Below are positions 59,897-63,382 of a stretch of DNA of 64,000 bases, piece after piece. Both the position numbers and the translations under genes were made by a program. The DNA comes from Syntrophales bacterium. GTDB lineage: Bacteria; Desulfobacterota; Syntrophia; Syntrophales; UBA2210. The notes below the pieces were generated by a model, which saw only the letters and a program-made list of their open reading frames with translations, was not told the origin of the DNA and ran no database searches. Location of the stretch: contig CAXXKT010000001.1 of NCBI GenBank assembly GCA_963662405.2, forward strand, positions 2,722,542 through 2,786,541, written 5' to 3'. The number at the start of each line of letters is the position of its first letter. The stretch's first letter is position 1.

Positions 59897-60556
59897 TCAG
59901 CCCTGTTTTGTCAAGGAGGTGAGAGCGCCGTCTTTCTCCTCGACCCCGTCCCGGCTCATTGTTGCCTCCGTTTCGTCGCTTGTAATCCGTTTGTATTCCG
60001 ATAATTCCGCAGCGCAGGTATCGGGCCCGAGGCGCAACGCAACCTCTTCGGGTGAGAAGGGACAGGAGTGAAAAATGTGATTCTCCAAGTCTTTTGTCTT
60101 CTCACCGAGGGTTTGGATATAGGTTCTGCGGTCAGGTTCCGTGCCGTACCGCTCCATGATATATGCCATCCGCCGCGCAAGTGTTGTTACTGCGTCGTGA
60201 ACTACCCGCTTATCGGCGTAATTAACCACCTCTGCCTCCGTTGGAAGGGTGGCTGCAAAATATTCATCAAGAAGGACGTGCTGTCCGACGATTATCCCTA
60301 CCTCCGGATATCCCAGATCAACAAGCAGCTCTTTCCCCGTTTCAGCGTGGTTTTCATGAGTTCGGATTCCGCGTGTCTTGGTGATGTCGTGAAGTAGGGC
60401 GGCCGCTTGGATCAGATCACGGTTGAGAGATGCGTCCAGCGAGTCTGAGAGGAAGAGGGCGACACGGCAGACCTGGAGAGAGTGGGCCACGATATGATCC
60501 ATCATTTCCATTGCATACATGATGCGGTAACAATCCTGTCGGTTGGGTATTCTCAT
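59897..60556 (-). CDS. HD-domain phosphohydrolase
   Basis: AHSLQV, LLHDITK, NHA, YADKR. Confidence 0.88.
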   Translation of the reverse strand: MRIPNRQDCYRIMYAMEMMDHIVAHSLQVCRVALFLSDSLDASLNRDLIQAAALLHDITKTRGIRTHENHAETGKELLVDLGYPEVGIIVGQHVLLDEYFAATLPTEAEVVNYADKRVVHDAVTTLARRMAYIMERYGTEPDRRTYIQTLGEKTKDLENHIFHSCPFSPEEVALRLGPDTCAAELSEYKRITSDETEATMSRDGVEEKDGALTSLTKQG

Positions 60557-60850
60557 GAACGTCCATCCTTTTCCGGGGATTCTCTAGCAGATACACGGTG
60601 AAAATGCCAGAGAGTTTTTGATGGACCGGTACATCAGGGTGTTAAGGAAGGAATCTTTCCTATTTATTCAGGAACGAGTCAAACAGCTCGTGATGCCCGA
60701 TCGTCCCCGCTCTTTTGAGGAGCAAATCCCGAGGTGTCCCCTGCTGGGTATGTCCGCCTCGAGGTCCAGCGGGTTCAGCGTGCGAATGCAACGACACCTG
60801 CCCGGACTAGGGACCCGTCGGAGGTATTTACAAACCCACGGGGAGCGCGT

Positions 60851-60880
60851 AAAAAAACCGGGAAGCATTGAGCTTCCCGG
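60851..60880 (-). terminator. Intrinsic terminator
   Basis: Minus strand CCGGGAAGC-tcaat-GCTTCCCGG followed by T7. Confidence 0.85.
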
Positions 60881-60980
60881 GAAGGGGAGTTGAACCGATC
60901 ATCGCGGAGAGCAGGCACATGGATCGGCGGTTACAGGGTTTAAGATTGAATCGAAGGAGGTGGGTATCGATTCATCTGCT
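60851..60980 (-). ncRNA. Candidate ~130-nt sigma-54-dependent small RNA
   Basis: Bounded by a -24/-12 promoter and an intrinsic terminator. Two internal hairpins with C/U-rich loops. No credible ORF. Confidence 0.65.
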
Positions 60981-60990
60981 CGTTTATATA

Positions 60991-61006
60991 AGCAATCTAT
61001 GTGCCG
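60991..61006 (-). promoter_or_regulatory. Sigma-54 (-24/-12) promoter
   Basis: CGGCAC-ATAGA-TTGCT on the minus strand, with exact GG-N10-GC spacing (consensus TGGCAC-N5-TTGCW). Confidence 0.75.
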
Positions 61007-61271
61007 GCGTATAATATCCGTGAATTATGCTCGCTAACAATACGGAATGTATCGGAATATTCTTATAGTGCAGGAACGCGCCGCTATGATTGAAGAGATA
61101 ATAATGGGAAGATCTGTCGAATTTCAGCCATAAGCGGGTTAAAATAACACAAAATCGTCGAATCCGTCTCAGTTGCGGAGAACGGGAATCAACGCAATTG
61201 GAGATGCGGAGCACAGCATTGAATCGGCAAGTGCTGGGATAAGGACTCGGTTATCGTTTTAACCTGATTGG

Positions 61272-62981
61272 CTAAAGAGCCAGATTGAGAATCCCCCCGA
61301 CCGCTACGGAAGATACGAGCATGATGGAGACCGATTTCAAAAAATCAGACGGGCCAAGTTCTCTGAGCAAGACAACAAAAGTGGCTATACAGGGGAAGAA
61401 CATCGTCAGGACGACGCTACCGATAACCATCTCTTTGGCAGTCATTGCCGATAGAGCCAACATGCCGAGAGCGGCATCCTTGCGAAGGAATCCAATGACC
61501 ACCGCCGTCACGGATTCTTCGGGGAGTCCCAAGATGCCATGAATGACCGGTGCTGCTATGGCGGCTATATGGTCGAATATCCCCATGGCGAAGAGGATAT
61601 TAATAACCAGCACTGCCACCAAAATGATAGGGACGGCTTCCAGGAGAAATCCGCGAGTTCTCCCCCAGAGTTTGTGTACGATCGTTCCCCATGGGGGAAC
61701 CCGGTAGGGGGGGATCTCAATAAGGAGCTCGGGACTGAATCCCTTTAAGAGCCGATGGAGGAGCATTCCCAGGACAACCCAGACTGCAAAGAGTGTCCCG
61801 TAAACAAGGGCTACATATTGTCCTCCATATTTTCCTACCAGACCGAATATCATAGCCTGGGCGGAGGCACACGGGATGGCTATGCACACCAGTGTCGCCG
61901 CTATGAAACGTTCCCGTCTGCTTTCGAGAACACGGGTTGCCATCACGGCCGGTACGCTGCAACCGAACCCCAAGAGTGCCGGTATAATGGCAAAACCATG
62001 CAGCCCGATCTTGTGCATGGTGGTGTCCAAGAGGACCGCCAGACGCGGGAGATATCCTATGTCCTCGAGGATTCCCAGGATCAGATAGAATGAGATGATG
62101 TAAGGGAGGACCATGGCAAAGGGAACATACAGGCCACTGCTGAGTAGCCCGAAGGATTCGACGAAATCGATCGTCCCATCCATCAGTTTTCCCACAACAA
62201 CATCATGAAAGAGACCCCCTGCACCCATGATCGTGCTCAGTTTCATCAATACCGGTAGCCAGAGGGACTGAAAGAGGGGATCAAGGACGTAATTTATCAG
62301 CGATTCGCCAATGAAGCGTATGATCATGAATGAAATCGCCAGAATCATTGCCGCTATCAGGAGGCCTGTCTTCGGCTTTACGCTCGCGTCCTCCAAACGC
62401 TCGAACCATTTGTGATGGCGGTGAAAGATTTGTTGGACCTGGTCGGTTATTCGACCGACCGTGGTCCACCGCTCATCCCTGTTTTTCGTCAGTGGGGAAG
62501 GGGACGCCGCTTCCGAAATACCGGCTACCAATTCCTTGATTCCCTGTCCGTTGAGCCCTGATGTGGGAATCACCGGTACCCCGAGAAGCTCTCTCATTTT
62601 TTCAAGGTCAATGTCTATTCCTCGATGGCGGGTATCATCCCATAGATTCAGTGCGACAATCATGGGGATATCCATCTCCATCAACTGCAGCGTCAGGTAG
62701 AGGTTCCTCTCAAGATTGGTCGCGTCGACGACATTAATAACGATGTCGCCCATTCCCAGCATTTCAAGGGCGATCTTTTCGGCTTCACAGGTTGGTTCGA
62801 GGGTATAGGTGCCGGGGACATCGATAATTTCAACCTGCTCGCCGTCTATCTTCATGAAACCGGAGGTATAGCTGACGGTAGTCCCCGGATAGTTGGAAGA
62901 AATGACCCGTACACCGGTGAGCCTCGAAAAGATGACGCTTTTACCGACATTCGGGTTCCCCACGAGCAGAATCTTCATCAT
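61272..62981 (-). CDS. feoB: Ferrous iron transporter B
   Basis: GNPNVGKS, NYPGTTV, DVPG, DATNLERNL, GFGCSVPA, PCIAT. Confidence 0.95.
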   Translation of the reverse strand: MMKILLVGNPNVGKSVIFSRLTGVRVISSNYPGTTVSYTSGFMKIDGEQVEIIDVPGTYTLEPTCEAEKIALEMLGMGDIVINVVDATNLERNLYLTLQLMEMDIPMIVALNLWDDTRHRGIDIDLEKMRELLGVPVIPTSGLNGQGIKELVAGISEAASPSPLTKNRDERWTTVGRITDQVQQIFHRHHKWFERLEDASVKPKTGLLIAAMILAISFMIIRFIGESLINYVLDPLFQSLWLPVLMKLSTIMGAGGLFHDVVVGKLMDGTIDFVESFGLLSSGLYVPFAMVLPYIISFYLILGILEDIGYLPRLAVLLDTTMHKIGLHGFAIIPALLGFGCSVPAVMATRVLESRRERFIAATLVCIAIPCASAQAMIFGLVGKYGGQYVALVYGTLFAVWVVLGMLLHRLLKGFSPELLIEIPPYRVPPWGTIVHKLWGRTRGFLLEAVPIILVAVLVINILFAMGIFDHIAAIAAPVIHGILGLPEESVTAVVIGFLRKDAALGMLALSAMTAKEMVIGSVVLTMFFPCIATFVVLLRELGPSDFLKSVSIMLVSSVAVGGILNLAL

Positions 62982-63217
62982 AACGGCTTGTCCACCTCGA
63001 TGAATATCTTAGCAGCCATGCCAAACCCGATGGCAACGCTTGATCGGTCAACTCGAACGGTGACGGGGCCATGGAGCAGCATGGAACTGATCTTGGTTAT
63101 CCTTTTTCCGGTCCTGATCCCAAGGGCGTTCAGGCGATTGATCATCCCCTGTCCTCCCCTGATTTCAGTTATAATACCACTCTCGTCCGGACGGAGGTCA
63201 TTCAAAGATTTAACCAC
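62978..63217 (-). CDS. feoA: FeoA family protein
   Basis: RLNALGIRTG, GPVTV, VAIGFGMA. GTG 63217 preferred. Confidence 0.9.
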   Translation of the reverse strand: MVKSLNDLRPDESGIITEIRGGQGMINRLNALGIRTGKRITKISSMLLHGPVTVRVDRSSVAIGFGMAAKIFIEVDKPL

Positions 63218-63382
63218 TGGTACCGTTGTTTCCTTCCTTGAAACAGTCAGGGGACAGGACCACTCAAGCACAGTCATACCGAAAGCAGCCTGTCCCCTTT
63301 TTGGACATACCAACCCATACACCATCAATCGGTGTAGAAGAGCAAAGTATGCGATGCATGTTAGAACTAAACTGGTGTTTGC

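Follow-up and report, generated by a model that had tools for sequence, protein, structure and literature searches.

The window analysed here, 64,000 nucleotides from the genome of a Syntrophales bacterium, carries a conserved, structured small RNA gene whose product likely represses a porin by pairing with the porin mRNA at two points, and is predicted to be under sigma-54 two-component control and to act without Hfq. The RNA is complementary to the porin leader and both change together across relatives, so that it would be expected to shut off production of the pore. The predicted parts of the gene are as follows.

60851 to 60980, minus strand: predicted small RNA of ~130 nt, copy A of the two in this genome (from fold and homologs; ends predicted)
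60991 to 61006, minus strand: sigma-54 -24/-12 promoter (CGGCAC at 61006-61001, 5 nt, TTGCT at 60995-60991)
60947 to 60974, minus strand: hairpin 1 (UGAAUCGA at 60974-60967, loop, UCGAUUCA at 60954-60947)
60966-60955, minus strand: 12-nt loop of hairpin 1 with the anti-Shine-Dalgarno (anti-SD) seed CCUCCU, which would cover AGGAGG of the porin leader
60935 to 60947, minus strand: specificity seed AAUCUUAAACCCU, whose 13 bases are complementary to the porin leader from -36 to -24
60894 to 60928, minus strand: hairpin 2, with a compensated stem and a variable loop
60882 to 60890, minus strand: C/U-rich single strand ACUCCCCUU, a possible second anti-SD site
60851 to 60880, minus strand: intrinsic terminator (9-bp stem at 60880-60858, U7 at 60857-60851)

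The small RNA gene and its homologs

The promoter, both hairpins, the C/U-rich strand and the 9-bp terminator with its U7 lie where an earlier note on this DNA had drawn them, and the position of the promoter predicts a +1 near 60980, as that note had proposed. The RNA folds with -40.3 kcal/mol (z -4.32), a value equalled by 0 of 200 shuffles, and the loop of hairpin 1 has a predicted unpaired probability of 0.99. The 3.8-Mb genome contains 22 matches to the strict sigma-54 consensus and also encodes rpoN. None of the Rfam families passed its gathering threshold (the best, Hrs12, reached 25 bits against 70 and was driven by the terminator), nor did the RNA stretch of 16 homologous loci give an Rfam match at E 1 or better; the RNA is unannotated, as the note had supposed. 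Inspection of the homologs revealed no conservation of a small peptide on either strand.

BLASTN matches were obtained in 15 of 36 genomes of the same family, most of them limited to the stretch from promoter to terminator. A covariance model matched 24 of 38 family genomes (the two weakest matches being spurious on inspection and two others weak but real) and 14 of 14 in one genus. Within the promoter of the aligned homologs, G2 and T12-C15 are invariant and G3 is kept in 13 of 14, while the longest invariant stretch of the RNA, present in 14 of 14, is CUUAAACCC, directly after hairpin 1, an element that the earlier note had overlooked. In an alignment of 21 copies, which was fitted to the covariance model and leans towards it, 19 of 28 base pairs have changes on both sides and 94% of the cells pair, with a covariation above that of 500 out of 500 shuffles and of all slid controls. 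Changes on both sides affect 9 of 10 pairs in hairpin 2 and 7 of 9 in the terminator. An independent MAFFT/RNAalifold analysis recovered these two stems (9 of 19 pairs compensated) and misaligned hairpin 1, which was recovered in 13 of 14 homologs by single-sequence folding. Hairpin 2 probably plays a structural role; its CUCUCC had been put forward as a seed, but this loop is the most variable part of the RNA and is missing in one homolog. The C/U-rich strand is partly conserved, as CCUCCUU in same-genus homologs and as CCCCU or less in others.

The RNA lies on the strand of both its neighbours, downstream of feoB (feoAB, 61272-63328) and ahead of an HD-domain gene (59897-60556), and its terminator might therefore serve only feoAB, an objection that the earlier note had itself raised; alternatively, the RNA might bind a protein such as CsrA, which the genome encodes. 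Of 16 homologous loci, however, eight have feoB upstream on the same strand, five a divergent gene and three another gene. Promoter, structure and terminator are kept whatever the neighbours, and the unit has its own enhancer, so that the RNA is not a feoAB tail. CsrA binds GGA, whereas the loops of the RNA carry CCU, and the covariation in trans with the porin leader (see below) needs base pairing. A protein-binding RNA or a mere feoAB 3' end is accordingly very improbable. The anatomy of the gene and its independence from its neighbours are shown by comparison of the homologous sequences, and what the earlier note had announced as an unannotated small RNA appears as an independent, conserved, structured RNA with an anti-SD loop, probably driven by sigma-54.

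The 3' end of the 16S rRNA of this genome, GAUCACCUCCUUU, matches the loop of hairpin 1, in agreement with the perfect anti-SD loop described earlier. That this perfection matters is not supported, since the exact CACCUCCU loop is found in only 1 of 26 homologs; the conserved core is a shorter CU-rich motif, CUCCU in 20 of 26, with variants (e.g., CUUCCUCC) in the remaining six. Of the promoter and loop expected to be conserved in close relatives, the promoter is, and the loop only as this shorter motif. The 8-mer CACCTCCT occurs 271 times genome-wide.

Several further observations were made at this level. Adjoining the terminator in the window (60770-60838, minus strand) is a 23-codon remnant, 65% identical to a relative's transposase and presumably of the IS200 type, judging from its sequence motifs; several further IS200-like copies or pieces are present in the genome. 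At one homologous locus (L039, G034:C151:23605-23724) a short deletion has removed the -12 box together with the RNA's 5' end. Covariance-model matches outside the order were discarded as terminator-only false positives (6 of 6 inspected), and several of 20 weaker order-level loci inspected were also terminator-only.

Complementarity to a porin leader

A search of the genome with the two-seed pattern led to a leader composed of AGGGUUUAAGAUU, ten bases, AGGAGG, seven bases and AUG. The 13-mer complement of 60947-60935 occurs once elsewhere in the genome, in this 5' leader of a predicted porin gene, and the same is true of the 12-mer.

C1:1299011-1298999: seed site in the porin leader, positions -36 to -24, exact complement of AAUCUUAAACCCU
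C1:1297704-1298975, minus strand: putative target, predicted porin gene, 423 residues, with a signal peptide and a C-terminal Phe

The AGGAGG occupies positions -13 to -8, ten bases downstream of the seed site. The predicted model of the protein is a beta-barrel of 18 strands (pLDDT 82), nearest to AlgE and to the Campylobacter MOMP. In sequence it is weakly similar to DESULF_POR1 (NF033939; 57 bits versus a cut-off of 250) and is not filed there, and a PDB sequence search gave no match. Two paralogs (C1:1296279-1297571 and 2401199-2402470; 62% and 69% identical) are devoid of the seed site; the RNA could therefore shift the porin mix and not close all pores.

Among 4196 candidate starts ranked by seed helix, the porin is second for copy A, behind what looks like a spurious frame, and seventh for copy B (the second RNA of this genome, described below); by plain duplex energy over the whole 5' domain it ranks 141 and 32, respectively. 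In a genome-wide duplex ranking corrected for accessibility, which missed the porin owing to a wrong start call, generic SD pairing dominated and no target stood out. These rankings bear on the broad, multi-seed repressor of the cuckoo, NfeR1 or AbcR style that had been suggested for this RNA, for which the porin would be one mRNA among many. The accessible anti-SD loop, the second C/U-rich strand and the many starts that pair by energy alone would suit such a regulator, and extra targets are common for small RNAs of the anti-SD type. Yet the genome-wide signal is largely generic, the invariant part of the RNA is the porin-specific seed, and both flagellin and the start of the kinase itself failed as conserved targets, which makes a broad repressor improbable. 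The evidence points to one conserved target, the porin mRNA, and to a second seed: from these comparisons, the discriminating seed is AAUCUUAAACCCU beside the loop and not the anti-SD loop. The accompanying proposal, repression by pairing at the ribosome-binding site, is probably the best reading.

The rejected candidates were as follows. For flagellin, the single occurrence of GGGTTTAAG among 4097 crude start regions is about chance level; matches to the flagellin family appeared in only 3 of 14 genomes of a genus in which 14 of 14 have the RNA, and no more than 3 of 11 flagellin starts had the exact site. The RNA was also dismissed as a feedback regulator of the kinase mRNA, as inspection of the listed kinase starts disclosed no conserved site. 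Finally, pairing of a ACGGGCAU loop, found in other families, over a Met-Pro-Val start codon proved too loose a pattern, with no recurring gene; the motif complementary to ACGGGCAU was found in porin leaders instead.

Of the porin leaders of the family, 23 have an intact 5' end; 18 of these contain GGUUUAA, three a variant and two only part of it. Matched changes in RNA and leader are seen in the window's genome (AAUCUU/AAGAUU), in G003 (AGCUU/AAGCU) and in G018 (GGUUUAAACC/GGUUUGAACC, in addition to CCUCCAG/CUGGAGG). Seven of the 23 genomes had no good model match; in all seven the enhancer search uncovered an enhancer-linked RNA whose seed matches or is shifted, examples being the RNA/leader pairs UUUAAACCUUUGAA/UUCAAAGGUUUAAA of G014 and GGUUGAAACCUUUG/CAAGGGUUUUAACC of G024. 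In G001 there is a mismatch where both sides have changed, and the best helix used an upstream SD-like run.

A further 36 genomes were chosen by hand to cover the families, from the 113 of 151 with a porin match. The best porin match and the enhancer-linked RNA were fetched before any leader was inspected; G136, with no located RNA, and G083, G037 and G161, with no fetched porin, were dropped, and only the best protein match was used in the several genomes with more than one porin. In most of the other families the RNA loop is ACGGGCAU and the porin leader carries AUGCCCG, and the two seeds of these families are not colinear with the leader; in G090, RNA and leader are joined by a different 13-base sequence. 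Once the SD had been removed from each leader, own pairs averaged -12.5 kcal/mol and foreign pairs -8.0 kcal/mol in a set of 59 genomes from 18 families. The value of -10 kcal/mol was reached by 47 of 59 own pairs (12 of 59, among them all three f20 genomes, missed it) versus 32% of foreign ones, and 34 of 59 own pairs beat all 30 leader shuffles. In global and within-family permutations 0 of 20000 reached the observed value, with p 5e-5 for family f1 alone, p 0.026 within genus and, for one genome per family, a median p below 0.001 (worst 0.013), figures in which related genomes are not independent and for which permutation corrects only partly for kinship. The uniqueness of the 13-base match and the covariation of seed and leader are evident from comparison of the sequences, and pairing of the RNA with the porin leader is strongly indicated.

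The 5' part of the RNA matches the leader poorly in all three genomes of f20 (G075, G092, G144), in G079 and G174 of f4 and in G114 of f13, which carry enhancer-linked RNAs of quite different sequence. In the porin leader of G031 (L292) the seed-binding site GGGUUUAAG is tandemly duplicated. The RNA locus lies ~3 kb from the porin gene in G018:C15, ~22 kb in G014:C2 and ~28 kb in G020:C1.

The predicted folds also bear on the direction of the effect. In the free mRNA part of the seed site of the leader is predicted to pair with the start of the coding region, and the SD is accessible only in part, so that the RNA might instead activate or stabilize the porin mRNA by freeing its ribosome-binding region from internal pairing. 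This is quite improbable, since coverage of the SD should block initiation and not free it, and the flanks of the conserved anti-SD motif covary with the SD context of the porin, the anti-SD helix being stronger with own than with foreign leaders (p 0.00035, 26 genomes). Cofolding kept the seed helix but left the SD uncovered by the loop, kissing pairs being outside the model.

Enhancer, kinase-regulator pair and the two copies

Homologous loci share a CGACA-N4-TGTCG palindrome ~170-200 bp before the promoter and a second CGACA half-site 77-90 bp beyond the palindrome towards the promoter. This combination of enhancer and promoter was detected in 116 of 151 genomes of the order, where the reversed control gave no match, and outside the order in 2 of 291 genomes of the phylum; the window's own genome misses the strict pattern. 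A GTDB pattern search gave at least 118 loci, and 101 of the 118 listed score as real. Among these listed matches, a kinase gene is located divergently upstream in 77 of 101, while in 3 of 101 the enhancer directly drives a ZraP/Spy-like reading frame, with no RNA; most of the 80 titled loci carry the label Smithella, Syntrophus, Syntrophaceae, Syntrophales or Deltaproteobacteria, which points to the order Syntrophales. Comparison of the loci shows a shared enhancer, with homologous RNAs divergent beside one sensor kinase.

In the genome of the window, the enhancer arrangement is found at C1:836519. The genes for a sensor kinase and a sigma-54 response regulator diverge from it, and downstream of it lies another copy of the RNA. 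The earlier note had called for a search for paralogous units; this one was missed by BLASTN of the own genome and located by the enhancer search. The note had also suggested that the gap towards feoB could hold an enhancer, and sites are indeed present there, in eroded form.

C1 ~836714-836830, plus strand: copy B (locus L077), divergent from the kinase-regulator pair, with an intact enhancer
61188 to 61205, minus strand: enhancer site 1 of the window copy, eroded (score 4.4 versus 23.0 for the site of copy B)
61145 to 61162, minus strand: extra partial enhancer site TTCGACGATTTTGTG at a non-homologous position (10.2, the best site-1 score in the gap)
61106 to 61122, minus strand: enhancer half-site 2 (TTCGACA), partly degenerate (score 8.9), aligned with TTCGACATTTT of the homologs
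61035 to 61047, minus strand: weak IHF-like site, of low confidence, in the position of a W-TCA-N5-TTA-like element discerned by eye in the homologs

With enhancer and promoter matrices trained on 28 loci, all from other genomes, copy B ranked first among 572 promoter candidates of this genome (62.6) and the window copy second (37.9), followed by a third at 29.5. Site 1 of the window aligns with the palindrome of the homologs without deletion and has therefore been eroded in place. Copy B, which the exact pattern located in 7 of 38 family genomes, has no clear U-tailed terminator directly after hairpin 2. It also matches the porin site, over 14 pairs with wobbles; copy A has the better seed but the eroded enhancer. 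For the RNA family, promoter, activator site, rpoN and activator, the components of a sigma-54-dependent unit, were all found; the case is weaker for the window copy because of its eroded site 1, and the ~32 full-length sigma-54 activators of the genome make the activator of copy A less certain still.

These features could also mean that the family works as described while the window copy is decaying or rewired (silent, weakly expressed, under another activator or transcribed by read-through from feoAB) and copy B does the job. Apart from the loss in site 1, the covariance-model score of the window copy (58.6 bits) is under that of most family copies, the transposase remnant adjoins its terminator, and no terminator-like site was seen on the same strand from feoB to the promoter. 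On the other hand, its promoter is intact (18.9, fifth best of the 572), as are all three stems, and its seed change (AAUCUU for AGCUU) is matched in its own porin leader, which implies continued selection on copy A. Decay of the window copy consequently has a small, though not negligible, probability, and a functional copy A is preferred.

Two close homologs of the RNA (L040 and L052, in G010 and G031) occur in unrelated neighbourhoods with the promoter kept and without the CGACA enhancer, hinting at possible capture by another activator.

Proposed mechanism and comparison with known systems

For transcription, direction of effect, activator binding and signal, we infer the following course. 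A membrane sensor kinase would phosphorylate an NtrC-type regulator, which would bind CGACA-N4-TGTCG and the half-site ~87 bp downstream and activate the sigma-54 polymerase. Pairing of the resulting RNA would start between its unpaired AAACCCU and positions -36 to -24 of the porin leader, and AGGAGG at -13 to -8 would be covered by the CCUCCU loop, in colinear antiparallel order with the seed. Pairing at these two points would block ribosome loading on the porin mRNA. The signal, the weakest step, is probably envelope stress, because ZraP/Spy-like periplasmic proteins travel with the system. For the order Syntrophales as a whole, we consider the odds slightly in favour of a sigma-54 two-component system with the small RNA as essentially its only output, throttling the main porin without Hfq, in which the seed (CUUAAACCC, ACGGGCAU, CUGGGC and others) has been rewritten repeatedly from family to family, always in step with the leader.

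Hfq was found in 0 of 151 genomes of the order, in a search that gave a match in 5 of 14 controls. Among the porin-repressing small RNAs of other bacteria, as far as the portions of the sources used here go, MicA, RybB and MicL are driven by sigma-E and associated with Hfq (PMC6737893), MicF and MicC belong to the same functional class (PMC5745476), and VrrA represents it in vibrios (PMC2628432). Like these, the present RNA is a small trans RNA that would serve a stress response by pairing with an outer-membrane protein mRNA in its 5' region, and the conserved complementarity to the initiation region of a barrel mRNA that characterizes such repressors is apparent from sequence. Unlike MicA, RybB and MicL, it has a conserved -24/-12 promoter and not a sigma-E one, is predicted to be driven by sigma-54 and an activator, and occurs where Hfq was not found; it has no sequence or Rfam match to the enterobacterial and vibrio porin RNAs. 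It may best be described as a MicF/MicA-like porin repressor, predicted to be sigma-54-driven and Hfq-free.

NfeR1, according to the parts of its description drawn on here, is an Hfq-independent RNA of ~123 nt tied to a two-component system, in which each of three hairpins bears CCUCCUCCC; it is repressed by NtrC and silences the mRNA of its own kinase (PMC10746234). The RNA of the window shares with NfeR1/alpha-r14 (cuckoo) and AbcR an anti-SD motif in a hairpin loop. In contrast to NfeR1 as portrayed there, it has a single such loop, with a shorter and variable motif in place of several CCUCCUCCC loops, together with a target-specific seed and no conserved site at the kinase start. The Hfq dependence and alphaproteobacterial homology of AbcR are likewise missing (no Rfam match).

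Closer by phylum are four sigma-54 ncRNAs of Desulfovibrio vulgaris, located after DVU0653, DVU0679, DVU1419 and DVU2359 (PMC4641369, PMC3333781). In the sections of these papers used here, DVU1419 is assigned to envelope stress, the function of Dv_sRNA2 is described as unknown, no ncRNA target is given, and the binding motifs reported are GTATATTTTTTATAC for DVU3381 and TGTGCCATCGTTTGCACA for DVU1419 (PMC4641369, PMC3333781). The two systems have in common a sigma-54 activator whose output includes or is an ncRNA; the operator CGACA-N4-TGTCG differs from both motifs, a difference between operators with which remote homology of the RNAs would be compatible. No description of the RNA was found in the open-access literature searched.

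In the same literature there is almost no small RNA of the Desulfobacterota with a known target, and this one comes with promoter, operator, candidate activator and target. The comparison suggests an independent origin of RNA-based porin control, under sigma-54, in a lineage that lacks Hfq. The order-wide switching of seeds offers an unusually clear data set for co-evolution of small RNA and target and, if the proposal is true, documents how seeds and targets have been exchanged wholesale in nature without a chaperone. The RNA may then determine how metabolites are exchanged across the outer membrane of syntrophs. In methanogenic communities, Syntrophales break down fatty and aromatic acids, so that control of outer-membrane permeability bears on anaerobic digestion.

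The kinase-regulator pair resembles ZraSR-ZraP and AtoSC in its sigma-54 response regulator, membrane kinase and divergent target, and in some relatives also in a PF13801 periplasmic partner. The regulator is closest to AtoC (534, cut-off 714) and ZraR (478, cut-off 760), and the kinase to AtoS and ZraS (213 for ZraS versus a cut-off of 479), all below the NCBIfam cut-offs; two hydrophobic spans of the kinase, predicted to lie in the membrane, enclose ~280 residues, predicted to be periplasmic. Unlike ZraSR and AtoSC, the main output is an RNA, and with these scores, and an operator that differs from the motif reported for Desulfovibrio DVU3381 in the sections cited above, the pair does not qualify as an ortholog of either system. 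Small proteins neighbouring it in relatives match PF13801, two of three above the cut-off.

At L152, L155 and L226 this enhancer and promoter are followed directly by a reading frame for a secreted ZraP/Spy-like protein. The record of L152 is labelled Desulfobacterales, which suggests an older protein output of the two-component system. The only PF13801 periplasmic gene in the genome of the window (C1:2694022-2695700) is located away from the kinase, next to what looks like an ECF sigma factor gene.
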